Under the pieces are notes generated by a model that saw nothing but the letters and a program-made list of their open reading frames with translations, searched no databases and was not told the origin of the DNA. The position numbers were made by a program, and so were the translations under genes. Source: Xylella taiwanensis (GTDB lineage Bacteria > Pseudomonadota > Gammaproteobacteria > Xanthomonadales > Xanthomonadaceae). From it: a DNA stretch of 32,000 nucleotides. The number at the start of each line of letters is the position of its first letter. The stretch's first letter is position 1. Below are positions 13,313-32,000 of the stretch, one piece after another. The stretch spans positions 2,550,001 to 2,582,000 of the forward strand of contig NZ_CP053627.1 in NCBI RefSeq assembly GCF_013177435.1, written 5' to 3'.

Positions 13313-14437
13313 GCACTCACAGGTCTCCCGATATCGGACACAATCGCAACGCCAGTGATTCGGACACTGCAATGAATCAACACTCCAATACCGTAGCGGT
13401 GATATCCCGGCAGAGCACATCCCCAACTTCGGGCCCATCAACCCGACACGATGCACATTCCATTGTTCCGCAACACCAGCTTGAATCAGCTCCTCATACC
13501 TCGTTTGTTACCGCAGGCACACTTTAGAACAACTCACAAAAGTCCTTTAAAACTCAAGCAGGTAATACCCAAGACACTGTTTAGCCCTGCTACCACGTGC
13601 ATGTCATGCACGTTCGCAACGATGCTGAATTTTTTAACTGCTCTTTGGAGTGATAGCAGGACATTCGCTTCATTCTCAACGATCTCCTGCACACGTGATT
13701 GAGATGCGCAATCGCCGCACACATCTAGGCATCGGTTGCGGAATTGCCACTTAGAACACACCGAGGCAGCTCATATACATAATAAATTTTGAGTGTGGCC
13801 GACATCGGCAACAAAGGAAGAACTGTGAACGAGCACTCCCCCCCCCTACTTCGCACGACGACACGTCACACCTACACATGTGCTGACAGCACGCAAGACA
13901 GATATCAACAGAACAGACATGCCACCATCACATGAGAGACACCCCCGTCATGCAGCGATCTCACTCACACTGAGTCAGGCACCACTGTGAATTTTCAAAA
14001 TGATGCAGCATCACAACACCCCACCGCATCTTCATCTGCACTGTCATCGACATGTCCAAGAAGCTGGGAAATAGGCCACTCTAGTCAAGCAACACACGTC
14101 TTCAAAGCACAACAGCCCCATTCATCACGAAAAGTCATAACCACATGAAGATTCTGTAAAATTATTATTGACAACACGATCAACAGTATCCAACACTCAA
14201 TTCAAACCTAGCCGGACAGCCAAGTGAAAAGCGGTAGATACCCGGTTTTAGAAAGACGTGCGATTGAGACCGGCCCCCACCGAATCAATCGGTCAGGGAT
14301 GAAAGTAATAAACCAGCAGCAATCAGACCCGCGGAGCAGCAATCCCTCCGCAACGGCACGGTCCTGGGCGGACGTTGCTACGGCGGCGGCCGCTCGCCGT
14401 ACTACCTAAGTACTCATTTACTCAACGAGATTGAGCA

Positions 14438-19898: not shown

Positions 19899-20251
19899 GG
19901 GGGTGCACTGGTTTCGACGGGGGTCACAAAATCGCTTGGTGCATGCCGAGGGGGCCGCTTTCCTCGTAAATCCAGCAGCACACTTATAGTTGCCAACGAA
20001 GACAACTACGCTCTGGCCGCTTAAGGCCTAAGCCTCGAAACTGCTTGTATCCGTGCTCGCAGCGTAGAGTCATCATCACGGAATCGCTGATGCTGGCCGT
20101 CTGCCCACCATCCGTTAAATCCAGCAGACTGGTTTCCGGGTGCGCTTTGCCTGTCGTGCTGCCCGGCGGCAAGATTTAACGGCAGGATAAGCATGTAGGG
20201 CCGGGGATGGAGTACTTTCGGACGGCGGTTCGATTCCGCCCACCTCCACCA
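19899..20251 (+). ncRNA. ssrA: tmRNA (transfer-messenger RNA)
   Basis: 5' GGGGGTGCACTGGTTTCGACGGGGG and 3' GGACGGCGGTTCGATTCCGCCCACCTCCACCA form the tRNA-like acceptor and T arm. The internal tag ORF GCC AAC GAA GAC AAC TAC GCT CTG GCC GCT TAA (19992-20024) encodes ANEDNYALAA. Confidence 0.92.
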
Positions 20252-20623: not shown

Positions 20624-21157
20624 CTAACGCACCTCACTTGGAATCTGCGTCTCTGGCTTACGGTATGAATGCAGTTTTCTTTCAAATTCCCAGGGCTTTA
20701 AAGGATGCGTTTTACCATGCATTTCTTTATAAACCCATTGTTCGGTTTTTTTAATGGCATCAAGAAATTCTTGATCTAATGTCCACGCCTTAGAGTGAAT
20801 CACCCAGGGATTTTCTCGATATAAAGCAACCGTGACGTCGAAGTACTGTTCTACATTTTTTGCAGCCTCATATCGGGCGATGAGGCTGTCAATCTCTGGC
20901 AAAAAATAACACAGCGCTAATCCCAGTTCCGGCACCGTCATCCGGGTGTCCGCATCAAGGGTTTGACCAGATTGCTCATTCAGAAGCAGATCAATGCTAA
21001 TAACAAAAATAAAGTGCTTTGATGAGAAGCGTGCTTCTTTCACTCTTCCGTGTGGATGTACAGGGTGACTTTCAACAAAGCCAAATTCAGCAAACTTGCG
21101 ATGGCATGCGACTTGTTTTAACCAGTCTTTTTCCACTGTGGGGGATGGATTGCTCAT
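20624..21157 (-). CDS. Orphan CDI immunity protein, type 1 (diverged paralog of 27876-28433)
   Basis: 177 aa, mostly identical by eye to the immunity ORF following the resident cdiA. Its ATG overlaps the upstream toxin-fragment stop (ATGA). Confidence 0.7.
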   Translation of the reverse strand: MSNPSPTVEKDWLKQVACHRKFAEFGFVESHPVHPHGRVKEARFSSKHFIFVISIDLLLNEQSGQTLDADTRMTVPELGLALCYFLPEIDSLIARYEAAKNVEQYFDVTVALYRENPWVIHSKAWTLDQEFLDAIKKTEQWVYKEMHGKTHPLKPWEFERKLHSYRKPETQIPSEVR

Positions 21158-21470
21158 AGTTTCACCATTTTTCCTGTAGCTGCGTCATAAACATATCCAT
21201 TCTTTTTGAGATACTCGATTTCACGTCCAAAGCCGGTCAGGGTTCCATCTGGTCCATAAATGTTTCCTGATTTCTTTCGATCTGGATTAAAAGGGGCTTT
21301 GTTTGGCGTTGTTGCCAGCACAATGTCATCTCCTCTTTTTATAGCGGCATCAAGGAAGGGTTTATTGACCTGTTGCCAGAATTTCTCTGGGCCTAATGCG
21401 GCGTACAGACTATCTGGGGTATTCAGTAAATTAAACGAACCAGGTTGTGTGGGGCCATCAATGATCATTC
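21154..21470 (-). CDS. Orphan cdiA-CT fragment, type 1 toxin domain (no start codon or pretoxin region)
   Basis: MIIDGPTQPGSFNLLNTPDSLYAALGPEKFWQQVNKPFLDAAIKRGDDIVLATTPN... is colinear with the last ~105 aa of the resident CdiA (28430-28745). Homology begins abruptly near 21470. Confidence 0.65.
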
Positions 21471-21637: not shown

Positions 21638-22039
21638 TCAAAAACACCAATCGTAATAATCCTCACCATGATCTCCTACTCCTTTCGATACCCAGACGGC
21701 AACGAATGGACACTCGTCGATCACTAACCAAATTCCATTCAATAGCGCTTCATCCGAAGCAGGAAAACAGCTTCCAAACATCTCTAGCAACGCCTCGGTG
21801 GGACCCTCCATGATAAGTCCGTCCTTTCTATTACCAAGCTTGAAACGACCCTCATCAAGTAATTTCCCGATGATCAACAAGAAATCGTTTTTTCTTTCCT
21901 CAAACGAGTCCAGATCCACTTGAGTATCAGAAACTCCATGTGCCCTCCCTACATACTCCCAAAGAATATGCAAAGGCTGTCCTTCACTGTCACAAATAAA
22001 ATCTATCTGCTCTTGGATTAACACAAAATCACCTATCAC
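21638..22039 (-). CDS. CDI immunity protein, type 2 (copy d)
   Basis: 133 aa: MIGDFVLIQEQIDF...SFEERKNDF...GKLLDEG...FPASDEAL...CPFVAVWV...GEDYYDWCF. Its start overlaps the stop of the upstream toxin fragment. Confidence 0.7.
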   Translation of the reverse strand: MIGDFVLIQEQIDFICDSEGQPLHILWEYVGRAHGVSDTQVDLDSFEERKNDFLLIIGKLLDEGRFKLGNRKDGLIMEGPTEALLEMFGSCFPASDEALLNGIWLVIDECPFVAVWVSKGVGDHGEDYYDWCF

Positions 22040-22398
22040 CTAAATTTAAGTTCGACTGTTTTATTTGTAATCTCCATCAAAGAAGGATTATTTGCTATAT
22101 CAATCGTCCACCTCGCTTTAGTCGCTGCTTCTGAAGAAGACACAGACCTCAAACGCACACTGGTTCCATCACTGAGTTTAGCCAGATAAACCCCTGGGCT
22201 TACCTGATTTAAAGGCACATCTCCGGCTAATTGCTGTGCATAGTTTTTAATATCCTGATCCGTTAAGACCTGGGAATCAAATACCTTAGTCGTGCCGCTC
22301 CTATTACTTCCCCCTCTCACTTTGGGGTCATACGGGGTGGCTTTGACATTGACATTGCTTCGATTCAACAGCGATGCTTGCAGCAACATCGCATGCAA
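22036..22398 (-). CDS. Orphan cdiA-CT fragment, type 2 toxin domain (copy d)
   Basis: ...PYDPKVRGGSNRSGTTKVFDSQVLTDQDIKNYAQQLAGDVPLNQVSPGVYLAKLSDGTSVRLRSVSSSEAATKARWTIDI...VELKFR is homologous to the C-terminus of 26589-27804. It lacks a pretoxin region, and only TTG and internal ATG starts are available. Confidence 0.65.
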   Translation of the reverse strand: MHAMLLQASLLNRSNVNVKATPYDPKVRGGSNRSGTTKVFDSQVLTDQDIKNYAQQLAGDVPLNQVSPGVYLAKLSDGTSVRLRSVSSSEAATKARWTIDIANNPSLMEITNKTVELKFR

Positions 22399-22468
22399 GC
22401 ACCTAAAAGAAGAAAATCCATCGCGTTTAATGATTTCACTGACGCAGTGTCAAGCCAATCAAACAACC

Positions 22469-22860
22469 TCACGTCCACTCATAATAATCTTCTCCATTTT
22501 CGCCTTCTCCTTTAAACACCCATACCGCTCCTGCCGGACACTCATCTGTAAAAAACCAAATTCCGACTTCGAGTCCTTCATCTGAAGCAGGAAACGCTTT
22601 TCTAAATAGATCGACTAATTCTTCGATGGTGCCCGTAATAAATTCACCTTTTTTGGCAAGCTTCAGCTTGCCCTCATCAAGTAATTTACCCAATAAAAAC
22701 AGGAAATCGTTTTTTCTTTCCTCAAACGAGTCCGGATCTACTTGCGCAGCAGAAACTCCATAGGCATTCCCTATATAACTCCAAGATAAATTAACCCCCC
22801 CCCCAAATCCTCATAAATAAAATCTATCTGTTCTTGAGTCAACATCACATCACCTCTCAC
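22469..22860 (-). pseudogene. CDI immunity protein, type 2 (copy c), frameshifted at a G10 homopolymer
   Basis: The GTG start at 22860 gives VRGDVMLTQEQIDFIYEDLGGG and then a stop. After the tract, the other frame reads VNLSWSYIGNAYGVSAAQVDPDSFEERKNDFLFLLGKLLDEG... through to the stop at 22469. One extra G restores exact colinearity with copy b. Confidence 0.75.
22795..22804. repeat. Homopolymer tract, C10 on the plus strand and G10 on the coding strand
   Basis: Read directly from the sequence: ttaa cccccccccc aaatcc. Confidence 0.95.
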
Positions 22861-23186
22861 CTAAATTTAAGTTCAACTCTTTGATTTGTAATTTCTCGCA
22901 AAGAAGGATTATCTTCTATATCAATCGTCCACCTCGCTTTAGTCGCTGCTTCTGAAGAAGACACAGACCTCAAACGCACACTGGTTCCATCACTGAGTTT
23001 AGCCAGATAAACCCCTGGGCTGACCTGCTTTAAAGGCACATCTCCGGCTAATTGCTGCGCGTAGTTTTTAATATCCTGATCAGTTAAGGCCTCTGATTTA
23101 AACACCTTCACATTACCCGCTTTATTACTTCCCCCTTTCACTTTGGGGTCATACGGGATGGCTTTGAACTCCACGCCTGCAATCAC
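22857..23186 (-). CDS. Orphan cdiA-CT fragment, type 2 toxin domain (copy c)
   Basis: IAGVEFKAIPYDPKVKGGSNKAGNVKVFKSEALTDQDIKNYAQQLAGDVPLKQVSPGVYLAKLSDGTSVRLRSVSSS...VELKFR. There is no pretoxin region. Confidence 0.65.
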   Translation of the reverse strand: MIAGVEFKAIPYDPKVKGGSNKAGNVKVFKSEALTDQDIKNYAQQLAGDVPLKQVSPGVYLAKLSDGTSVRLRSVSSSEAATKARWTIDIEDNPSLREITNQRVELKFR

Positions 23187-23250
23187 TCATTCATGATTGG
23201 GCTGATTTAACTAGCCGCTGGCAACACCATATCACCAGCGGCCTTGATGC

Positions 23251-23673
23251 TTATCCAAACAAATTACGCAAAGATTTCTTGACCTCGTCCACTGTGATTA
23301 TATCTTCGCACTCTTCGTAATCATCATAATCCTCGTAATCCTCGGGTCTGTTGTAATCATAATCTATATTGATTTTACCTGTGGGATAGACAGTAAATGT
23401 CAAACCCCAGATACGATGCCCAGTGCACTTTATAAGATCATCTCTAAGATATAAAACAGCAAAGTAACTACGAGTACTAAAACCATCAGAATCACCGATA
23501 TTTTTCTTATCCACACACCCGTCTTTTAATAACCAACATTCAGATGAAACCAATTTTGAATAAACCTCATATTTACCCACCACCTCATCCCAAGCACGCT
23601 CACCTGCAAAGGCTATAAGATCTTCTCCAATTGTTTGATAAGCCTCTTCTACATTTTGAAATTCATGATTCAT
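23251..23673 (-). CDS. Putative immunity protein for the nuclease orphan toxin (acidic C-terminal region)
   Basis: 140 aa. Its ATG overlaps the toxin stop (ATGA at 23670-23673). The C-terminal region is acidic (NRPEDYEDYDDYEECED). It may be YezG/DUF600-like, but that is a weak impression only. Confidence 0.6.
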   Translation of the reverse strand: MNHEFQNVEEAYQTIGEDLIAFAGERAWDEVVGKYEVYSKLVSSECWLLKDGCVDKKNIGDSDGFSTRSYFAVLYLRDDLIKCTGHRIWGLTFTVYPTGKINIDYDYNRPEDYEDYDDYEECEDIITVDEVKKSLRNLFG

Positions 23674-25039
23674 TGGTTAAATTCCCTTGAAATCTTTTTC
23701 CCGTCAATCTCTGCTTTAACCACAAACTTATTCGGCCTCACACCACCAGTGGCCGGATATAAAACATCAATATTTACACTCACGGACTTACCGTCCTGCA
23801 ATGCTTGATGCAACTGTTGTTCCATTTTTCTCCACCCGCTTCGGTTCAAAATCTCTGCCTGCGGCACGAGATTGATCCTATCACCAGCTCCGCCTAGGCT
23901 GGAGGCAATCAAATGCCCGCCTTCATCGCCCAGTTCGCCACATTTACCGACACAGCGTTGCTGGTAGGTATTGCGATCCATCTTTTTTGAAATCAAATCT
24001 GCTTGCACATTTTTTACTCGGCCTGCTGTGTCTGTCACATACCCATGACCGTTATCCAACACATAGGCTGTCTTAGGTTCCAGAGAACCATTGACCGCTT
24101 TATCCCAACCAGTGTTCTTGCTGCCTGTGGTGATTTGTTTGACCTGGCTGACATCGGCCCGCTTGGCTAACTGATCAGTCAATGCCTGACGCCGGGCGAC
24201 AACATCGGTTGCACCGGAGATCCAGCGACCGCCGATTTTGGCCGCTCTCACGCCGTATTTGGCCAGGTTGCCGATCATCACCGAGGCGATGTATTCCTCG
24301 CCTTTTTCTAGGGCCACTTGTTCTATGGTCTTTTCCCCTGAACGAATCGCTTTGATGTCTTGCCAGGCGTCATAGGCGGTCAGGCCTTTATCGGCTAACC
24401 AAAGGGCACCAATGAGCACGGGGACGAAGACCGCGTTGTTTTCGGTTTCCAGCCGGGCTGCTGCACTGCTCACCGCCGCTTCGCCACCGGCGGCGGCGGT
24501 GATGCCGGCCACCAGGCTGGTGACGGTATCGGTGCGCTGTTGTTTTTCCGCGGCGCTCAGGCTGGCGACGTCGGCGCCGGTGGTGCGGTCTAGTAGGTTA
24601 TTGATGACCACGGCCGCCGCCGCGCCAGTCGCGCCGGCGCCGCACCCTTGGCCTTGGGCGGCAGCACCAGCGCAGCCCAGCAGGCCTTGCAGGGCCGCAC
24701 GGGCCGGTTCGCTGTCTAGTTGGTCGGCCAGTGTTTTGACTTGGCTGGCGCCTAGGCTTTGCAGGTAGTTAACCGCAGCGCCTTGAAGCATTTGGGTGGC
24801 GCTGCCGGTCACGTGGCTGCCTGCGGCCAGGTTCAGGGCGGTCACAATCGTTCTGCCGGTGCCGCCTACGTCCCAGGTGGCGTTGTCTTGGAGGCGCTGT
24901 TGTAGGGCCGCGATTAGGGCCGGGTCACGTTGGTGTTCGGGTTTGGCGCGTTCGCTGTCTAGGGCCTGTTGGGTTTGGGTGGCTTCTTGAGCACGGTTGT
25001 TAATAAAGGTGCCGACTTCGCGCTGTAGGCCGCTGACGA
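23670..25039 (-). CDS. Orphan cdiA-CT module: pretoxin region with ETENN motif, a shared ~75 aa linker, and an Endonuclease_NS_2-like (His-Me finger) nuclease toxin
   Basis: The frame stays open upstream of the ORF-track start (a GTG at 24845) to about 25039, where homology to cdiA stops. ETENN is at 24435-24449. The C-terminal domain has DEGGHLIASSLGGAGDRINLVPQAEILN, which matches the D.GHLIA...GG...N.NL.PQ...N nuclease signature. Confidence 0.8.
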
Positions 25040-25116
25040 CGTTTTATGACTTCCCGCTTTATATCCGGATAGGGTTGATTTTAGATTTAAACCAAAAATA
25101 ATCCATTGATGATTTA

Positions 25117-25279
25117 GGCGACGCGACCCAAACACACCCTACTTTATTCAACAGCCTTGAATAAAACACCTTGATGGGTATTCACCGTCACACTCGCACC
25201 GGCACCACCCCCTTAGGGACGCTGCACCGGTGCAGCAACGCCGCTCACCTCAAGAGGCAGTGCAATTACTGAGGCATCA
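25117..25279. repeat. Cassette-junction repeat, copy B
   Basis: Shared with copies A and C. It contains the hairpin TTATTCAA-CAGCC-TTGAATAA (25144-25164) and the 16-bp palindrome GCTGCACCGGTGCAGC (25221-25236). Confidence 0.8.
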
Positions 25280-25684
25280 TCAAAAACACCACCCGTAATC
25301 ATCCTCATCAGGTTCTCCTTCTACTTCTCTTGTAAACAACCAGGCTGCAACGAATGGACAATCTGCAAAGAACCAAAGTCCTGCCTCTAGCGCTTCATCC
25401 GAAGCAGGAAAACATTGCCTGAACCGCTCCACCAATTCCTCGGTGGGACCCTCTATGATAACCTCGTCCTTTCTATGACCAAGCTTAAGCTTGCCCTCAT
25501 CAAGTAATTTCCCCAATGCAAAGAAGAAATCGTTTCTTCTTTCCTCAAACGAGTTCGGATCTACATCCACAGAAGAAACTCCATGCACCTCCCCTACATA
25601 ATCCCAAACATGATGAAACCCCGCCCTTAAATCCTCATAAATAAAATCTATCTGCTCTTGAGTTAACACAAAATCACCTATCAT
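25280..25684 (-). CDS. CDI immunity protein, type 2 (copy b)
   Basis: 134 aa: MIGDFVLTQEQIDFIYEDL...SFEERRNDF...GKLLDEGKLKLG...FPASDEAL...CPFVAAW...DYGWCF. Confidence 0.7.
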   Translation of the reverse strand: MIGDFVLTQEQIDFIYEDLRAGFHHVWDYVGEVHGVSSVDVDPNSFEERRNDFFFALGKLLDEGKLKLGHRKDEVIIEGPTEELVERFRQCFPASDEALEAGLWFFADCPFVAAWLFTREVEGEPDEDDYGWCF

Positions 25685-25959
25685 CTAAATTTAAGTTCAA
25701 CTTTTCGATTTGTAATTTCTCTCAAAGAAGGATTATTTTCTATAACAACTGTCCATCTTGCTCCTGTCACTTCATTTGAAGAAGAAACAGACCTCAAATG
25801 TAAAATGGTTCCATCATTCAGGTCGGCCCTATAAATCCCTGGCCTCATCTCCTTTAAAGGGACGTCTCCTGCCAATTCCTGTGCATAGTTTTTAATTTTC
25901 TGGTCGGTTAAGGCCTGAGAATCAAATACCTTCACATGACCCGCTTTATTACTTCCCCC
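25681..25959 (-). CDS. Orphan cdiA-CT fragment, type 2 toxin domain (copy b, the most truncated and most divergent)
   Basis: GGSNKAGHVKVFDSQALTDQKIKNYAQELAGDVPLKEMRPGIYRADLNDGTILHLRSVSSSNEVTGARWTVVIENNPSLREITNRKVELKFR. Homology starts at the GGSN motif. Confidence 0.6.
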   Translation of the reverse strand, partial: GGSNKAGHVKVFDSQALTDQKIKNYAQELAGDVPLKEMRPGIYRADLNDGTILHLRSVSSSNEVTGARWTVVIENNPSLREITNRKVELKFR

Positions 25960-26018
25960 TTCGGAGCAGGGCGAGATATGTTTTAGATTGATACCAGAAA
26001 TAAACTATTTATTATTTA

Positions 26019-26178
26019 GGCGACACCAATCAAAAACACTATAAATTTATTCAACAACGTTTAAATAAAACACCAGGATAGACGGCAATACCCGCACCGG
26101 CGCCGCCCCCTTTAGGGACACGGCACGGGTGCAGCAACACCGCTCACCTCAAGAGGCAGTGCAATTACTGAAGCATCA
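26019..26178. repeat. Cassette-junction repeat, copy C
   Basis: Shared with copies A and B, and more diverged in the AT-rich hairpin part. Confidence 0.8.
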
Positions 26179-26592
26179 TCAAAAACACCAATCGTAATCA
26201 TCCTCACCATGTTCTCCTACGCCTTTTAATACCCAGACGGCAACGAATGGACAATCTGTAAAGAACCAGAGTCCTCCCACTTCCTGATCAATCTCTTCAT
26301 CTGAAGCAGGAAAACATTGCCTGAATCGCTCCACTAGCTCCTCGATGGAACCCTCCAAGATACGCTCGTCCTTTCTATGACCAAGCTTAAGGTGACCCTC
26401 ATCCATTAATTTCCCGATGATAAACAGGAAATCGTTTTTTCTTTCCTCAAATGAATCCGGCTCCGCTTGATCAGTAGAAAGTCCATACGCATCCCCTATA
26501 TGAAACCAAAGAAAATGCAAAGGCTCCCCTGCCCTGTCACTGTCAGCAATAAAATCTATCTGCTCTTGGGTTAACACAAAATCACCTATCAC
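26179..26592 (-). CDS. CDI immunity protein, type 2 (copy a)
   Basis: 137 aa. Its GTG start overlaps the toxin stop (GTGA). It has the same conserved N- and C-terminal blocks as copies b to d. Confidence 0.7.
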   Translation of the reverse strand: MIGDFVLTQEQIDFIADSDRAGEPLHFLWFHIGDAYGLSTDQAEPDSFEERKNDFLFIIGKLMDEGHLKLGHRKDERILEGSIEELVERFRQCFPASDEEIDQEVGGLWFFTDCPFVAVWVLKGVGEHGEDDYDWCF

Positions 26593-27804
26593 CTAAATTT
26601 AAGTTCAACAGATCTTTGATTTACAACACCCTTCAGAGATGGATTGTCTAATACTTGAATAGTCCACCTCGCTGCGGTCTCTTTTTGTGAAGAAGAAACA
26701 GACCTCAAATGCACCCTAGTTCCATCACTGAGTTTAGCCATATAAACACCTGGACTCACCTGCTTTAAAGGGACATCTCCGGCTAATTGCTGTGCATAGT
26801 CTCTGATGTTCTGATCGGTTAACTTCTGCGAATCCAACACCTTAGTCGTCCCACTCCTATTACTTCCCCCTGAAGAGCCGCGCGGGGTGATTTTTACCTC
26901 TATGCCTGCAACGACTAATTCATCCTTTGAGTTACGCTTGCCAAAGAAATCTTTGAACTCGTCAAATCGCTTTTTTTGCTGCTGCGCCAGAACACTGCCA
27001 AGCGGCTTTGAGGTTAAATCCGGCCCTTTAGGATTGTGTGCAATTTGATCAAGGGCTTGTTTCTCGGCTTTGGCAATGTCATCGGCTTTGCCGGAGATCC
27101 AGCGACCGCCGATTTTGGCCGCTCTCACGCCGTATTTGGCCAGGTTGCCGATCATCACCGAGGCGATGTATTCCTCGCCTTTTTCTAGGGCCACTTGTTC
27201 TATGGTCTTTTCCCCTGAACGAATCGCTTTGATGTCTTGCCAGGCGTCATAGGCGGTCAGGCCTTTATCGGCTAACCAAAGGGCCCCAATAAGCACGGGG
27301 ACGAAGACCGCGTTGTTTTCGGTTTCTAGGCGGGCTGCTGCACTGCTCACCGCCGCGTCGCCACCGGCGGCAGCGGTGATGCCGGCCACCAGGCTGGTGA
27401 CGGTATCGGTGCGCTGTTGTTTTTCCGCGGCGCTCAGGCTGGCGACGTCGGCGCCGGTGGCGCGGTCCAGTAGGTTATTGATGACCACGGCCGCCGCCGC
27501 GCCAGTCGCGCCGGCGCCGCACCCTTGGCCTTGGGCGGCAGCACCAGCGCAGCCCAGCAGGCCTTGCAGGGCCGCACGGGCTGGTTCGCTGTCTAGTTGG
27601 TCGGCCAGTGTTTTGACTTGGCTGGCGCCTAGGCTTTGCAGGTAGTTGACCGCAGCGCCTTGAAGCATTTGGGTGGCGCTGCCGGTCACGTGGCTGCCGG
27701 CGGCCAGGTTCAGGGCGGTCACAATCGTTCTGCCGGTGCCGCCTACGTCCCAAGTGGCGTTGTCTTGGAGGCGTTGTTGTAGGGCCGCGATCAGGGCCGG
27801 GTCA
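26589..27804 (-). CDS. Orphan cdiA-CT module: pretoxin region with ETENN motif, the shared linker, and a type 2 toxin domain (copy a, the only copy still fused to a pretoxin region)
   Basis: Near-identical to 24214-24927 through ...GGRWISG, then diverges into ...VAGIEVKITPRGSSGGSNRSGTTKVLDSQKLTDQNIRDYAQQLAGDVPLKQVSPGVYMAKLSDGTRVHLRSVSSS...VELKFR. ETENN is at 27312-27326. Homology to cdiA upstream ends at 27804. Confidence 0.8.
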
Positions 27805-27875
27805 GGCTACCGCCGCCCTACCCTTGGGCGGCAGCGCAGCTCAGATTTAGTTCTTTTACTCAATGCATGATTTTT

Positions 27876-28433
27876 CTAACGCACCTCACTTGGAATCTGC
27901 GTCTCTGGCTTACGGTATGAATGCAGCCTTCTTTTAAATTCCCAGCGCTTTAAAGGTCGCATTCCACCCCGCATTTCGTTATAAACCCATTGTTGAGTTT
28001 TTTTAATGGCATCAAGAAATTCTTGATCTAATGTCCACGCCTTGGAGTGAATCACCCAGGGATTTTCTCGATATAAAGCAACCGTGACGTCGAAGTACTG
28101 CTCTATATTGTCTTTACCCTCATATCGATTACCCTCATATCGAGCGATGAGGGTGTCAATCTCTGGCAAAAAATAACACAGCGCTAATCCCAGTTCCGGC
28201 ACCGTCATCCGGGTGTCCGCATCAAGGGTTTGTCCATATGGCTCATTCAGAAGCAGATCAATGCCAATGACAAAAATGAAATGCTTTGATGAAAACTCGG
28301 CTTCTTTCAGTCTTCCCCTTGGATCTACAGGATAACTTTCAACAAAACCAAACTCAGCAAACTTGCGATGACATTCAACTTGTTTTAACCAGTATTTTTC
28401 CACTGTTTCCACTGTGAAAGATTGATTGCTCAT
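27876..28433 (-). CDS. cdiI: CDI immunity protein, type 1 (cognate partner of the resident CdiA-CT)
   Basis: 185 aa. Its ATG overlaps the cdiA stop (ATGA at 28430-28433). The gene is AT-rich compared with cdiA. Confidence 0.75.
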   Translation of the reverse strand: MSNQSFTVETVEKYWLKQVECHRKFAEFGFVESYPVDPRGRLKEAEFSSKHFIFVIGIDLLLNEPYGQTLDADTRMTVPELGLALCYFLPEIDTLIARYEGNRYEGKDNIEQYFDVTVALYRENPWVIHSKAWTLDQEFLDAIKKTQQWVYNEMRGGMRPLKRWEFKRRLHSYRKPETQIPSEVR

Positions 28434-31400
28434 GGCTTCACCATTTTTCCTGTAGCTGCGTCATAAACATATCCATGTTTTCCGAGATACTCCATTTCAC
28501 GGCCAAAGCCAGTCAGGGTTCCATCTAGTCTATAAATATTTCCTAATTCCTTGGAGTTTGGAATAAAGCGGTCGTAGTTTGGCGTTGTTGCCAGCACAAT
28601 GTCATCTCCTCTTTTTATAGCGGCATCAAGGAAGGGTTTATTGACCTGTTGCCAGAATTTCTCTGGGCCTAATGCGGCGTACAGACTATCTGGGGTATTC
28701 AGTAAATTAAACGAGCCAGGTTGTGTGGGGCCATCAATAATCATTGACTTGGGCAAGCTCAGTTCCGTGATGATGCGATCAGTGTCATTTTTAAAGGTTC
28801 CGAGCACCGTGGTGGTCTTATCAGGATTAGCCTTGATGACCACACCACTGGTTGTTCTGATTTCTGCCGGCAAGAGGTAAGCGGCACCATCTCGATAGAA
28901 GTGCTGAGCTTGTTGCGCACTGGCAATCGCCTCCGCACGGCCCAGCTGATAGGCCTTAGACGCGGCCATGCCTTCCAAGACATCTTTACTCAGATTGATG
29001 CCTACGTTGGTAAGGGCCGCGCCGCCTTTGGCCACACCGCCCACCCCCAAGACAACTGAACCAATATCCCAGACCAGGGTGCCAAGATCGCGACCGTATT
29101 GCTCGGCATGCTGATTACCTCCAACGGTCAGGGCCGTCTGCATGCGATCAATCTTGTGATCTATCTCCTGAAAAACGCTGTCGCTTAATTGCTGGCGTAC
29201 TTCTGGGTTGGTGATCAGCTCCTTCAGGCCACGAAGGCCAGCCATGGGGTTGGAGAGAAATTGCACCAGTCCTTGAATATCGCTGAGGCCTGATTCGGCT
29301 AAGCCTTTGACTAATCCAACGCCCGTTAATCCTTCTTGTCTTGCATAAATGGAACCCCATTTGGCCGCCACTTGCAGCGATTCCAAGAGGCCATTGGCCG
29401 CTGCAAGCTCCTGATTCATTTGCGCGTTTTGCTGGGTGGCAAGCCAGTTGTTATCCAGCGCCGCAGTGGCTGCATGGGTGGCGCTGGCTGCATGGGCATC
29501 GCCGGCGCTGGCAATGCCCGTGACCAGGGAAAGAATCAGGTTGCGTTTTGCTTCACGCTGCTGGGCGGTTTCATCGGGCGTGGTGGCGCTGAATAAACCG
29601 GTGAGTACGCTGGAGGCCGCCGCGCCCGTGGCCCCGCTGCCGCAGCCTTGCTGGCTGGCCGCAGCACCGGCGCACGCCACGATGGCATGCAAGGCCGCGT
29701 GTAAGGGCGTGCCTTCGGTGAGTTGCCCGTTGGCGACCAGGTGACCGATATAGGAGGCGCCTTGTTGCTGTACGTAGTTCACCAGCATGGTGTTAGCTAC
29801 CTCGCGCGTGGCAGCGCTGGCATTGCCACTGATGCCGGCGGCTAAGGCGGTAGTGATTTGCCGATAGGTGCCGCCGGGGGCCCAAGTGGCGTTGTCTTGG
29901 AGGCGCTGTTGTAGGGCCGCGATCAGGGCCGGGTCACGTTGGTGTTCGGGTTTGGCGCGTTCGCTGTCTAGGGCCTGTTGGGTTTGGGTGGCTTCTTGAG
30001 CGCGGTTGTTAATAAAGGTGCCGACTTCGCGCTGTAGGCCGCTGACGATGGTAAAGCCGGCTTTGATCTCTTGTTCGTTGAAGATCGGCTGCAGGGTGTG
30101 GCTGGTGTCTTGGCCGGTGAGCACGTCGTGGTTGAGGGCGGCGATGGTCTCGGCGGCGGTCTGCCCGGTGCGGGCCTGTTGGCCGGCTTGGTCACGGATG
30201 GTGATGGCGCCAGCGCTGATGCCGCTTTGGGTGGTGCTGTGGCTGGCGTCGCGGGCGTTGATGACGCCGGGGGGAGCCACGCTCACGCCGTGATAGCCCG
30301 GCAGTTGGGTGCCAGGCACCTGTTCTGCGGTGGCGGCGCGGCCTTGTTGGTCGGTCCCCACGCCGCCGGGGCCGCGGCTGTAGCCGCCGCCTAGGCTCAC
30401 GTGGCTGGCGCTGTAGGAGGCGTGGTTGTCCAGCGCTGTTTCGCTCAGGGTGGCGGTGTCCAGGACGTTCAGGCCCGCTTGGGCGGCGGCGGCGCTGGAG
30501 GTGATCAGGCCGCCCATCAGGGTGGTGTGCCCGCCCACGGTCACTTGAAAGCCCCCATCACCAGCCAGCAGGCCGCTTTGTTCGGTAACGCTGCTGTAGT
30601 CGCTGCGGATGGTGTGATGGTTGAGGTGGGCGCTGCCAGAAACACCAACCCCAGCGGTGAAGCTGCCGCCGATGCTTTGATCTTTGCTGCGGTACTGGTG
30701 GGTGTCTTGGAGGCTTTCGATGTCTAGGTTGCCGCCAATGGTGGCCATCAGCTGGGGGGCGCTGGCCACGGCGCCGCGTAGGATGGTGTTGCCCCCAGAT
30801 TCCAGCACCAGCAAGCGACCGCCCTGCACGCGGGTGTTGGTCCAGGTGACATCGGTACTGGCGCCGCTGCCTTTGGAGGCGCTGCCCTGGACGGTGAAGC
30901 CGGCGCTGGCGCCGCCGGTGCCCAGGTTCACCGCCACTCCCACGCCGTGACCGCTGCCGCGGCTGTCGCGGGTCATCTGTTCGGTGTTTTTGGCCGCCGC
31001 CATGACAAGGTCGCCATCGGCTTTGAGGTGGGTGACGTTGCCAGCGCTGATCTGGGTGCCGCTCAGGGTCAGGGTGGACTGTTCACCGGCGCCGGTGGCG
31101 CTGATGGTGATGTTGCCGCCGGCGTGGAGGGTGGATGCAACGGCGCGGTCGCTGTGGGTGGTGGTGGTGCTGTGGTATTGGGTGGTGCCCAGGGTCGCCG
31201 TGAGGTTTACGCCGCCCAGGACCTTGGGGTCGCTGCCGATGGCATCTACGGCGTTTCTGGCGGCCAGGGCGGCGGTGATTCCCGCTAGGGCCTGGAGGCG
31301 GGGGGTGGAGGTCCGCCCGGCGGCCGCTGTCATGTGCTGGGTGGTTTGGAAGGCCGCAATCGCTGGATTGCTCAGGCTCGCGGTCAGGCCGCTTTGGCGA

Positions 31401-32000
31401 AACTTAGTTTCCTGAGTGGTGTGCTCGGTCTCACGGGCTTCGACAATGGCTACTTTTTTGCCGTGGATGTCAATGTTGCCTTCCGGGGCAATCAGGTCGA
31501 TGCCAGGGGCCTGGACGGCGCCTTTGCTGGAGGAGATGAAGATGTTGCCATTGAGGGCGGCCACGGTGTTGCCGGTCAAGTAGGTGGCGTGGTGGCTGCC
31601 TTGTTGGCTGGCTTTTTGGGAGCCCACGGTGAAGCCGGCGCCAGAACCGAACACGCCGCTGCGGCGCTGGGTGGTGCTGTAGCTGGAGCTGTGGGTGTTT
31701 TGGGCGCCGAACATGCCCACGCCGTGGGTGCCTTCAATGTGGGGGTTGCCATCGGCTATAAAGTCGGTGCCAACGCTGTAAACCTTGTCGCCTGTGACGG
31801 TGACCTTGGTGCCGCCCAGGACGCTGCCCAGGGCAATGGTGTCTTGGCTGCTGGCGGTGCTGTGGCTACGGCTGGAGCCCCATAGGCCGCTGCGCCGGCT
31901 GGTGCGTTCTTCTTGGCCGCTGCGCCGTTCTTGGCCGGCCACCAGGGCCACGGTGCCGTCAGCAGAACTGATGTTCAGCTTGCCTTGGCGGCTGTCCAGG
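28430..32000 (-). CDS. cdiA: CdiA / filamentous-hemagglutinin family exoprotein, C-terminal ~1190 codons (5' end lies outside the window)
   Basis: The frame is open to nt 32000 (...DSRQGKLNISSADGTVALVAGQ...). It contains Gly/Ser/Thr-rich FHA-type repeats, a pretoxin region ending in an LDNN motif (29447-29458), and then a ~338 aa variable CT. Confidence 0.88.
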   Translation of the reverse strand, partial: LDSRQGKLNISSADGTVALVAGQERRSGQEERTSRRSGLWGSSRSHSTASSQDTIALGSVLGGTKVTVTGDKVYSVGTDFIADGNPHIEGTHGVGMFGAQNTHSSSYSTTQRRSGVFGSGAGFTVGSQKASQQGSHHATYLTGNTVAALNGNIFISSSKGAVQAPGIDLIAPEGNIDIHGKKVAIVEARETEHTTQETKFRQSGLTASLSNPAIAAFQTTQHMTAAAGRTSTPRLQALAGITAALAARNAVDAIGSDPKVLGGVNLTATLGTTQYHSTTTTHSDRAVASTLHAGGNITISATGAGEQSTLTLSGTQISAGNVTHLKADGDLVMAAAKNTEQMTRDSRGSGHGVGVAVNLGTGGASAGFTVQGSASKGSGASTDVTWTNTRVQGGRLLVLESGGNTILRGAVASAPQLMATIGGNLDIESLQDTHQYRSKDQSIGGSFTAGVGVSGSAHLNHHTIRSDYSSVTEQSGLLAGDGGFQVTVGGHTTLMGGLITSSAAAAQAGLNVLDTATLSETALDNHASYSASHVSLGGGYSRGPGGVGTDQQGRAATAEQVPGTQLPGYHGVSVAPPGVINARDASHSTTQSGISAGAITIRDQAGQQARTGQTAAETIAALNHDVLTGQDTSHTLQPIFNEQEIKAGFTIVSGLQREVGTFINNRAQEATQTQQALDSERAKPEHQRDPALIAALQQRLQDNATWAPGGTYRQITTALAAGISGNASAATREVANTMLVNYVQQQGASYIGHLVANGQLTEGTPLHAALHAIVACAGAAASQQGCGSGATGAAASSVLTGLFSATTPDETAQQREAKRNLILSLVTGIASAGDAHAASATHAATAALDNNWLATQQNAQMNQELAAANGLLESLQVAAKWGSIYARQEGLTGVGLVKGLAESGLSDIQGLVQFLSNPMAGLRGLKELITNPEVRQQLSDSVFQEIDHKIDRMQTALTVGGNQHAEQYGRDLGTLVWDIGSVVLGVGGVAKGGAALTNVGINLSKDVLEGMAASKAYQLGRAEAIASAQQAQHFYRDGAAYLLPAEIRTTSGVVIKANPDKTTTVLGTFKNDTDRIITELSLPKSMIIDGPTQPGSFNLLNTPDSLYAALGPEKFWQQVNKPFLDAAIKRGDDIVLATTPNYDRFIPNSKELGNIYRLDGTLTGFGREMEYLGKHGYVYDAATGKMVKP

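Follow-up and report, generated by a model that had tools for sequence, protein, structure and literature searches.

The window, a stretch of 32,000 nucleotides from Xylella taiwanensis, very probably contains the orphan-cassette array of a contact-dependent growth inhibition (CDI, type Vb secretion) locus of this species, with four pairs of a DUF769 toxin domain and a DUF596 immunity gene. At 21638-27836 on the minus strand there are four complete copies of a toxin domain of about 95 aa, each of them followed by an acidic protein of about 130 aa (Table 1). The family membership, the architecture and the divergence of the alleles are established by the comparisons reported below, and the sequence-only reading, which had taken the region for toxin/immunity pairs, is borne out at the level of sequence, the pairs appearing to belong to a polymorphic-toxin system of the CDI type. 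A CdiA fragment with Fil_haemagg_2 stands first, and the CT/immunity pairs come after it one by one on a shared strand. A public contig (L016) has the window sequence with 100% identity, and its cdiA gene encodes 3225 aa; cdiB and the TPS domain of this cdiA fall beyond the window.

Table 1. Features in and around the array (positions are those of the window).
Feature	Position	Strand	Evidence
cdiA, 3' part, filamentous-haemagglutinin type, running off the window	28430-31951	-	ORF; Fil_haemagg_2, 5e-40
Resident CdiA: LDNN pretoxin motif and own C-terminal toxin without known family	within 28430-31951	-	
cdiI (185 aa), cognate to the toxin of the resident CdiA	27876-28433	-	no family match
Orphan 1: pretoxin region, ETENN motif, entry domain, DUF769 toxin (26592-26885)	26589-27836	-	ORF 26589-27722; profile, 6.6e-39
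Immunity gene 1, DUF596, 132 aa from the conserved start	26179-26577	-	longest ORF starts at 26592
Orphan 2: bare DUF769 toxin domain	25681-26001	-	tblastn; profile 25684-25974, 2.9e-37
Immunity gene 2, DUF596, 129 aa	25280-25669	-	PF04591, 4.6e-6, 27.2 bits
Orphan 3: pretoxin/ETENN/entry module as in orphan 1, Endonuclea_NS_2 DNase-type toxin	23670-25040	-	PF13930, 3.1e-27
Presumed immunity gene of the Endonuclea_NS_2 orphan, 140 aa	23251-23673	-	position only; no family match
Orphan 4: bare DUF769 toxin domain	22857-23192	-	tblastn; profile 22860-23150, 3.6e-39
Immunity gene 3, DUF596, frameshifted here	22469-22845	-	C-terminal fragment PF04591, 1.9e-16
Orphan 5: bare DUF769 toxin domain, equal to public protein P0004	22036-22398	-	tblastn; profile 22039-22329, 1e-39
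Immunity gene 4, DUF596, 128 aa	21638-22024	-	family profile, 3e-38
Orphan 6: resident-type CdiA toxin fragment and diverged cdiI copy; array end	20624-21468	-	tblastn
tmRNA gene ssrA, bordering the distal array end	19899-20251	+	Rfam RF00023, 195.8 bits; ARAGORN

The four toxin-domain copies noticed from the sequence alone were all recovered on the minus strand, by the family profile as well as by tblastn. The profile matches span positions 4/5-100 of 100 with E values of 1e-37 to 1e-39, and the copies share 63-86% pairwise identity, a similarity far beyond chance. The first copy is indeed fused to a pretoxin/ETENN module, as had been proposed, and orphan 1 has no secretion domain. Over its first 228 aa it shares 94.8% identity with orphan 3, whose Endonuclea_NS_2 toxin interrupts the DUF769 series, and a DNA repeat of 714 bp common to the two orphans (98% identical) extends to 27804, in agreement with the module boundary set there earlier. 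Moreover, a 182-bp stretch of orphan 3 (24858-25039) is 96% identical to positions 29867-30048 in cdiA. At the other end of the array, the toxin fragment of orphan 6 (21160-21468) has 87% aa identity to the resident CdiA toxin, and the cdiI copy next to it (20624-21157) is a diverged duplicate of the resident cdiI with 82% aa identity. The array is flanked by the full-length cdiA/cdiI pair on one side and by ssrA on the other.

The pair had been regarded as one that could not be placed in a family, but both partners can be placed, the toxin in DUF769 of NCBI and the immunity protein in DUF596/Imm-NMB0513 of Pfam. Since the family is only catalogued, the earlier claim on function stands, whereas the claim of an unplaced and unusual pair falls. 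Judged by its sequence, the toxin is the domain labelled DUF769 by NCBI, known in E. coli as CdiA-CT type 1 and listed with unknown activity (Halvorsen et al. 2024, PMC11630599, Table 2), and by description it probably corresponds to the Ntox20 family in Zhang et al. 2012. A profile search against 1.84 billion cluster representatives found 167 clusters, and the E. coli cluster "DUF769 domain-containing protein" matched the Xylella profile over the whole domain. In 109 of 115 near-full-length matches the domain runs to the very C-terminus of its protein. Among the 48 scanned carriers of at least 300 aa, DUF637 and PT-VENN were found in 13 each, Fil_haemagg_2 in 11, TPS in five, T7SS_signal in three, Pyocin_S in two, and PT-HINT and PAAR in one each. 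No model in the local Pfam and NCBIfam collections matched the toxin, so the DUF769 label rests on the NCBI names and on our own profile. The likeness to Ntox20/Imm-NMB0513 (PMC3482391), likewise by description, lies in a mostly-beta toxin with a conserved Arg, T5SS/FilH carriers and the DUF596 partner, which was described there as the partner of Ntox20 in beta- and gamma-proteobacteria; MafB-linked members were not present among the carriers scanned.

The partner protein is Pfam DUF596, alias Imm-NMB0513, with a winged-helix fold (PDB 2O5H). PF04591 exceeds its cutoff in three of the immunity copies, and for immunity 1 the match has an E value of 3.4e-11 and scores 43.6 bits where the cutoff is 25, with PDB 2O5H at 1.6e-4. 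Immunity 4 was not matched by PF04591 in the local hmmscan; it is 64% identical to immunity 1, and the identical public gene carries a precomputed PF04591 annotation. An ORF for an immunity protein follows every toxin copy, as had been stated, although the third is not intact in this strain, owing to a frameshift in a G10 run (C10 on the plus strand, 22795-22804); in the sister strain the run is G11 and the gene is intact, encoding 125 aa. The overlapping start proposed earlier, (G/A)TGA, exists as an ORF start, but the conserved (A/G)TG start lies 15 nt further downstream. In the 12 junctions compared this start is preceded by AGGTGAT, and it gives immunity proteins of 132, 129 and 128 aa, matching the public annotation. 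Contrary to the earlier description of a variable middle third, the middle of the immunity protein (SFEERKNDF...GKLLDEGKLKLG...FPASDE) is its conserved part, and the variability is found at about residues 15-45 and 100-125. The immunity proteins have a pI of 4.2 (4.25 for immunity 1), in comparison with 9.2-10.1 for the toxins.

The toxin probably acts in the cytoplasm, because its entry module is common to it and the Endonuclea_NS_2 DNase orphan, because it occurs fused to Pyocin_S translocation domains, because a basic toxin is paired with an acidic immunity protein, and because it is hydrophilic (GRAVY -0.4 to -0.6; maximum 19-residue hydropathy at most 0.57) and has no transmembrane segment. 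It is probably an enzyme directed at nucleic acids, and we tentatively consider that it might be of the nuclease type, in which case an RNase would be the most likely kind. The invariant residues K20, R66, S69, S71, R78, W79, T80, E99 and K101 are retained in all four copies, and the conserved residues include neither a histidine nor an acidic metal-binding cluster. The AlphaFold model (pLDDT 87.8, pTM 0.80) predicts one long helix and then an antiparallel sheet; Foldseek gave no fold match in the PDB (best E 0.66), so that nuclease activity has no structural support from this confident model, which matches neither a nuclease nor any other PDB fold.

The speculation that the toxin is an RNase of the BECR fold (barnase/EndoU/colicin E5-D/RelE), which would cut tRNA, rRNA or ribosome-bound mRNA by Lys, Arg, Ser and Thr on a face of the beta-sheet, seems unlikely and gains no support from the Foldseek result or from hhalign. 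The domain is small, basic and alpha+beta with the helix before the sheet, conservation falls on K, R, S, T and E without His, hhalign aligns the hairpin LRS...ARWTI with KLRSSGYRLVY of RelE, and HigB2 is among the top Foldseek rows; however, those rows score E 0.8, a probability of 0.08 and TM 0.21-0.23, no BECR member is significant despite the pLDDT 88 of the model, the hhalign probabilities are 0.3% for RelE and 0.1% for YoeB, and in 76 members of the toxin family no BECR family of Pfam was matched even at E<=10. Furthermore, Zhang et al. described Ntox20 just as "mostly beta, conserved R", and it is not among the eight new Ntox families that they assigned to BECR by profile-profile methods (PMC3482391). 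Still less probable is an effector that does not act on nucleic acids, depolarising the membrane or working in the periplasm, for which the mostly-beta Ntox25, earlier predicted to be an RNase and in fact an ionophore (PMC11630599), and the lack of any nuclease fold match to the model would speak. The hydrophilic character of the toxin, an immunity protein that is strongly acidic, akin to a soluble crystallised winged-helix protein and not itself an integral membrane protein, the entry module shared with a DNase and the existence of Pyocin_S carriers all argue against it.

Tip replacement between X. taiwanensis strains is shown by strain L017. Its cdiA gene is 99.4% identical to that of the window, and at window position 28911 the sequence changes over to a fifth DUF769 allele, which is accompanied by a DUF596 gene of its own; collinearity with the window resumes at 25961. 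DUF769 is thus the tip of full-length CdiA in this sister strain, as it is in X. fastidiosa. The proposal that the array holds immunity against circulating alleles fits these sequences and is supported because the fifth allele is carried on the same full-length cdiA.

The four pairs are old alleles under constraint. The term "amplified" used for them before is at odds with the pairwise dS of the toxin copies (0.25-0.69, dN/dS about 0.36), which speaks for old alleles and against recent duplication; for the immunity genes dS is 0.31-0.37 and dN/dS 0.53-0.81. Tandem amplification within the genome with rapid diversification, as opposed to alleles that already existed being acquired or displaced one after another, is quite unlikely: although the copies are arranged head to tail, all on the same strand, and their junction sequences are identical, and toxins 3 and 4 are adjacent and form the closest pair (86% aa identity, dS 0.25), these dS values of toxins and immunity genes contradict it, as do the different toxin family in the middle of the series, the fact that the alleles have closer relatives outside the array, in other strains and species of Xylella, and the fifth allele swapped in at the cdiA tip of the sister strain. 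It is also improbable that the orphan copies are recombination debris, neither expressed nor selected and giving no immunity. All four toxin domains are full length and keep every invariant residue, dN/dS is about 0.36 in the toxins and below 1 in the immunity genes, three immunity ORFs are intact, each with the conserved Shine-Dalgarno sequence and start, and the organisation is maintained across genera; against this stand three toxin copies without pretoxin or secretion part, promoter-like and terminator-like sites that are no commoner than by chance, and the frameshift in immunity gene 3, although that frameshift amounts to one G within a homopolymer and the sister strain does not have it. 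With a frameshift in one immunity gene and no delivery module on three of the toxin copies, part of the array may nevertheless be decaying and not maintained.

Four co-resident variants had been considered unusual, but multi-pair arrays are normal in the DUF769/DUF596 family. There are five to six pairs per locus in X. fastidiosa, two to three in Serratia and Pasteurella, and six toxin and 14 immunity copies in Nicoletella. A DUF596 gene follows the DUF769 domain in all nine downstream ORFs tested from Serratia, Klebsiella, Nicoletella and Pasteurella, and in E. coli and X. fastidiosa the gene downstream of the toxin is DUF596 by precomputed annotation. The E. coli CdiA-CT type 1/DUF769 orphan resembles the pairs described here in the toxin domain (E = 1.9e-34), in the downstream DUF596 gene and in its position after cdiA-cdiI, whereas the sequence identity is about 55%, the pretoxin motifs are VENN with other entry domains (PMC11630599 and the loci) instead of ETENN/LDNN, and each of the E. 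coli loci examined has one DUF769 orphan instead of four. The haemagglutinin (TPS) loci of X. fastidiosa share the toxin and immunity families, the junction sequence and the genus; the difference is that there the full-length TPS protein ends in DUF769 and the site is beside a rhomboid gene, while in the window the CdiA tip is a different, unannotated toxin, DUF769 occurs only in orphans and the neighbour is ssrA. The orphan array of E. coli EC869 (Poole et al. 2011) reportedly consists of displaced CT/immunity modules downstream of cdiBAI, some of them with pretoxin homology for recombination. Classic orphan arrays, as far as is known, mix unrelated toxin families, in contrast to the many stacked alleles of one family found here and generally for DUF769/DUF596. 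Non-cognate cdiI genes of Stenotrophomonas are comparable to the displaced modules downstream of cdiBAI, and DUF596 cdiI genes that belong to functionally uncharacterised CdiA-CT groups rank among the commonest of them (PMC11893273).

With such a layout normal for the family, the finding is real but ordinary, and it concerns a toxin family that is catalogued but biochemically uncharacterised. We assume that the basic domain would be active when it is C-terminal on full-length CdiA, and that it would be delivered to neighbouring cells behind a cytoplasm-entry domain and arrest their growth, while the acidic winged-helix protein from the tightly coupled downstream gene would bind and block only the cognate allele. 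The four orphan pairs would then be displaced or acquired alleles and not fresh duplications, which may provide X. taiwanensis with standing immunity against the DUF769 alleles of other strains and may also serve as a reservoir for the exchange of cdiA tips by homologous recombination via the common pretoxin/entry sequences.

The orphan array stands directly 3′ of a cdiA/cdiI pair that shares its strand, the cdiA being of the filamentous-haemagglutinin type and full-length, and the minus strand carries all the relevant genes. Over 19,965 bp the window matches the NCBI contig CP087686.1 at 100% identity, a contig whose proteins are named Xylella taiwanensis and in which the haemagglutinin-type gene encodes 3225 aa; the window holds just the 3′ part of this cdiA, its TPS domain and an adjacent cdiB would lie farther out, and a TPS domain was observed in the homologues of X. 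fastidiosa and E. coli only. Every CT module is directly followed by a small immunity ORF, and the orphans are without the secretion and filament part. As judged by eye, the pretoxin motif is ETENN in orphans 1 and 3 and LDNN in the resident cdiA, and the Pfam PT-VENN model gives no match to it. Searched against the window, the family profiles match just four full-length toxin domains (E 1e-37 to 1e-39) and as many partners, so that the repeat is real and beyond chance. A promoter and terminator scan gave uninformative counts, at chance level. The tmRNA gene ssrA is a frequent integration site of islands.

Features of the orphan array and its surroundings (window positions)
Feature	Position	Strand	Remark
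Filamentous-haemagglutinin-type cdiA, 3′ 3.5 kb	28430-31951	-	Fil_haemagg_2 at 5e-40
185-aa ORF, resident cdiI	27876-28433	-	directly after the cdiA part
Orphan 1: pretoxin with ETENN, ~100 aa of entry-type sequence, DUF769 toxin	26589-27836	-	followed by ~130-aa partner
Orphan 2: bare DUF769 fragment	25681-26001	-	with partner
Orphan 3: orphan-1-type pretoxin/ETENN/entry module and Endonuclea_NS_2 toxin	23670-25040	-	PF13930, 3e-27
140-aa ORF 3′ of the Endonuclea_NS_2 orphan	23251-23673	-	presumed immunity gene
Orphan 4: bare DUF769 fragment	22857-23192	-	with partner
Immunity gene 3 (DUF596)	22469-22845	-	frameshifted
Orphan 5: bare DUF769 fragment	22036-22398	-	with partner
Orphan 6: resident-toxin fragment and diverged partner copy	20624-21468	-	last orphan, beside ssrA
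tmRNA gene ssrA, tag ANEDNYALAA	19899-20251		just beyond the last orphan

Apart from the DUF769 copies, neither Pfam nor NCBIfam has a match for the toxin domain of the resident CdiA (28430-28911) or for its immunity protein of 185 aa, and a second copy of this pair, with 82–87% protein identity to it, makes up orphan 6. The resident toxin and its partner are a second uncharacterised toxin/immunity family at the locus. The 140-aa ORF has a very acidic C-terminus and is without family match except a weak YezG-like one (E 0.056); presumably it encodes the immunity protein of the Endonuclea_NS_2 toxin. Outside the CDI region, a C9 homopolymer is found at window positions 13838-13846.

The sequence-only reading had described a compact toxin/immunity pair that could not be placed in a family. 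Both members do have one: the partner is DUF596 (PF04591), and the toxin matches P0035, an E. coli/Citrobacter cluster of 283 members named "DUF769 domain-containing protein", at E = 1.9e-34 along the entire domain (profile positions 4-94). The profile, built from 27 toxin sequences, was searched against 1.84 billion cluster representatives with a cut-off of E ≤ 1e-3 and returned 167 clusters (50% identity). The members from Xenorhabdus and Erwinia are likewise labelled DUF769, the close homologues in Xylella and Ralstonia carry the name "DUF769 domain-containing protein" or "hemagglutinin", and E. coli alone accounts for over a thousand sequence blocks with DUF769. Pfam and NCBIfam gave only chance matches to the toxin, for example Med12; in the Pfam-A copy used, 76 members yielded no DUF769 match even at E ≤ 10, and the DUF769 model is apparently absent from that copy. 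The E. coli relationship was established through protein clusters; megablast of the region against E. coli genomes was without match, and distant blastn with a Klebsiella cassette likewise. Table 2 of Halvorsen et al. 2024 (PMC11630599) assigns DUF769 to type 1 of the E. coli CdiA-CT toxins and gives its activity as "unknown". Zhang et al. 2012 (PMC3482391) characterised Ntox20 as "mostly beta; conserved R; T5SS; Imm-NMB0513", which the toxin resembles in its model of mostly strands, its invariant R66, its T5SS/FilH carriers and its DUF596 partner; the two are equated by description only. As to a link with the Neisseria NMB0513 loci, the homologue search returned no Neisseria proteins.

The domain ends at the last residue of the protein in 109 of the 115 near-full-length matches. 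Among the 48 scanned carriers of at least 300 aa, DUF637 and PT-VENN were found in 13 each, Fil_haemagg_2 in 11, TPS in 5, T7SS_signal in 3, Pyocin_S in 2, and PT-HINT and PAAR in one each, and the named carriers come from Brenneria, Serratia, Xenorhabdus, Acinetobacter, Moraxella, Enterobacillus, Variovorax, Ralstonia and the actinobacterium Plantibacter. These carriers span four secretion/delivery system types: DUF769 is used by pyocins as well as by T5SS, T6SS and T7SS carriers, and both Proteobacteria and Actinobacteria have it. It is present on an S-type pyocin of Serratia oryzae (P0046/P0186), on actinobacterial T7SS-signal proteins of Plantibacter flavus (P0127) and on a metagenomic PAAR protein (P0049), which indicates that DUF769 is not confined to CDI or to the Proteobacteria.

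In the case of the partners, the PF04591 model (gathering score 25 bits) scores 43.6 bits with immunity 1, 27.2 bits with immunity 2 and 60.4 bits with the fragment of immunity 3; immunity 4 had no match in the local hmmscan, its identical public gene has a precomputed PF04591 assignment, and it shares 64% identity with immunity 1. Immunity 1 is also related to 2O5H, a winged-helix protein of solved structure, which it matches at E = 1.6e-4 across 79 residues. According to Zhang et al. 2012 (PMC3482391), Imm-NMB0513 has a winged-helix fold, corresponds to Pfam DUF596, and acts as immunity protein to Ntox20 in beta-/gamma-proteobacteria and also to Ntox7. Judged from these profile matches, the partners in the window belong to Pfam DUF596, that is Imm-NMB0513, with a winged-helix relationship. 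They are very acidic (pI 4.2), and W109, W120 and W135 are invariant among 15 immunity sequences. Their variability peaks at about residues 15-45 and 100-125 and the middle is conserved, contrary to the variable middle third that had been proposed. A partner ORF with an overlapping start had been read after each toxin. Four partners are indeed recognised by profile, but partner 3 is frameshifted in the window strain; the overlapping start does exist as a (G/A)TGA ORF start, but it is probably unused, given a junction conserved in 12 cases from three Xylella genomes, TGA-TAGGTGAT-N3-(A/G)TG-TTA-AC, which supplies a Shine-Dalgarno sequence and, 15 nt downstream of the overlapping start, another start. 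The downstream start gives products of 132, 129 and 128 aa as in the public annotation, and the overlapping start is absent altogether from some alleles. The frameshift in partner 3 lies in a coding-strand G10 tract (plus-strand C10, 22795-22804), which is G11 in a sister strain of X. taiwanensis, where the gene is intact (125 aa) and the remainder of the 400-nt stretch is identical. The difference between G10 and G11 may reflect either phase variation of immunity by slipped strands or an assembly error in the homopolymer, and the tract may render immunity to one allele phase-variable.

Four co-resident variants of one family had been considered unusual, a view that other genomes do not bear out. 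Counted as profile matches per locus, the toxin and the immunity gene are each present in 5–6 copies as consecutive pairs in three X. fastidiosa genomes, where two loci start with the C-terminus of a full-length TPS protein; there are 6 toxin and 14 immunity copies within 8.3 kb in Nicoletella semolina (L009, 8480-16776), an extreme case, two and three in Pasteurella oralis, and two and two in Serratia marcescens. Up to five immunity genes follow each other in N. semolina with no toxin copy between them. In X. taiwanensis itself at least 9 different DUF596 clusters occur, each on about 32 contigs, and together with the multi-copy loci elsewhere this makes four co-resident variants typical. In all nine cases tested (Serratia, Klebsiella, Nicoletella, Pasteurella), the ORF directly 3′ of the toxin was DUF596, and the gene order in E. 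coli is cdiA, cdiI, DUF769 orphan, DUF596. A single-protein scan of genome contigs returned loci in Serratia, Klebsiella, Nicoletella, Veillonella and Pasteurella and no Xylella locus. From these gene neighbourhoods, the toxin/DUF596 pairing is universal and arrays are the norm for the family.

The view of the array as an amplification does not agree with the divergence of its copies, since the pairwise dS is 0.25–0.69 among the toxins and 0.31–0.37 among the immunity genes. With dN/dS of about 0.36 for the toxins and 0.53–0.81 for the immunity genes, the copies in the window are old alleles under constraint and not the products of recent amplification. A second X. taiwanensis genome, L017, bears on how such alleles are used. 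As far as window position 28911, inside the entry region, its cdiA shares 99.4% identity with that of the window, and then it continues in frame into a fifth DUF769 allele, which has 71–78% identity to the four of the window and its own DUF596 gene; collinearity restarts at 25961 with 99.97% identity. In place of window 25961-28911, L017 (5462-6428) has one DUF769 and one DUF596 replacing the resident toxin domain, cdiI, orphan 1 and immunity 1. Because the fifth allele is carried on a shared cdiA, the tip has been exchanged within the species and DUF769 is displayed on a full-length protein; the two strains present a natural cdiA tip swap. In addition, the DNA of orphan 1 is repeated in orphan 3 (27091-27804 and 24214-24927, 714 bp, 98% identity) and that of cdiA upstream of orphan 3 (29867-30048 and 24858-25039, 182 bp, 96% identity), and both repeats could be substrates for deletion or tip replacement. 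The immunity genes of several alleles are kept in both strains. The proposal that immunity is held against alleles circulating in the population gains support from the fifth allele on the CdiA of L017 and from the tip exchange, and the array's second role suggested by these data is that of a reservoir of toxin tips.

The literature searched on DUF769, DUF596, Ntox20, NMB0513 and CDI in Xylella contains no functional study of the toxin and gives it no activity. Orphan 1 and the Endonuclea_NS_2 orphan share 94.8% identity over their first 228 aa, including the entry region after ETENN, and E. coli toxins of the Endonuclea_NS_2 type are classed as DNases (PMC11630599). DUF769 is also found behind Pyocin_S translocation domains, the toxin is basic (pI 9.2–10.1), hydrophilic and without a transmembrane segment, and the partner is related to a soluble crystallised protein. 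The entry module shared with a DNase, the Pyocin_S carriers, the basic hydrophilic toxin and the acidic soluble partner together argue for an enzyme that quite probably acts in the cytoplasm and is neutralised by stoichiometric binding of the cognate DUF596 protein. We tentatively suggest RNA or another nucleic acid as the most likely target, although with somewhat less than even confidence. The AlphaFold2 model made from a 76-sequence alignment (pLDDT 87.8, pTM 0.80), which superseded an earlier one from a shallow alignment (pLDDT 74.6), has the predicted order strand, strand, long helix, three strands, short helix and two strands, seven strands in all. R66 and W79 are invariant in the 76 sequences, and K20, S69, S71, R78, T80, E99 and K101 are nearly so. 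The most variable positions among 36 Xylella alleles (54, 62, 64, 72-74 and 84) flank this conserved core, an arrangement that would be compatible with binding of the immunity protein over the active surface.

Modelling and fold comparison, as the sequence-only reading had proposed, gave a confident model that has no match in PDB or BFVD. Foldseek with the pLDDT 87.8 model against PDB gave nothing significant (best E 0.66, TM ≤ 0.34), the first model was likewise without match in PDB, and one model searched against BFVD had no significant match; by sequence, the single-sequence search of PDB was empty for the toxin and the profile search returned nothing below E 0.26. The guess of a BECR-type RNase finds no significant similarity in Foldseek, hhalign or Pfam: the HigB2 rows of Foldseek had a probability of only 0.08 and TM of 0.21–0.23, hhalign gave 0.3% against RelE and 0.1% against YoeB, and no BECR family of Pfam matched. 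The pairing by hhalign of LRS...ARWTI of the toxin with the RelE hairpin KLRSSGYRLVY is a lead, not evidence, and with the comparison to RelE and YoeB insignificant a BECR fold is not claimed. The conserved R, SSS and E also recall an R-S-E ADP-ribosyltransferase, which was rejected by reasoning only, because S69-71 follows R66 at a distance of three residues, the domain has ~90 aa and there is no ART match. For a fold and biochemical activity that are new among polymorphic toxins speak the model that matches nothing in PDB or BFVD, the absence of Pfam/NCBIfam coverage, and the core K20, R66-S-x-S-x-S71, R78-W-T80 and E99-x-K101, which resembles no known catalytic signature; we regard such novelty as a real possibility, though less likely than not. 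The cytoplasmic enzyme neutralised by its DUF596 partner is the reading that we prefer.

Taken together, the window is a typical CDI orphan array, whose genes the public annotation already assigns to DUF769 and DUF596. The sequence-only reading had recognised it correctly as a toxin/immunity array, with catalogued families, a known architecture and a normal multiplicity. What keeps its interest is the activity and the unmatched fold of DUF769 and the clear tip exchange within the species. For the family, the broad distribution, the absence of a functional study from the literature searched and the unmatched fold make DUF769 a reasonable biochemical and structural target, independent of this locus. 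Orphan arrays are thought to serve a population logic, in which tips are exchanged and immunity to several alleles is retained. The comparison of the two X. taiwanensis strains is a clean natural case of cdiA tip exchange within a species, in a quarantine plant pathogen for which the competition between strains in xylem and insect vectors is relevant.
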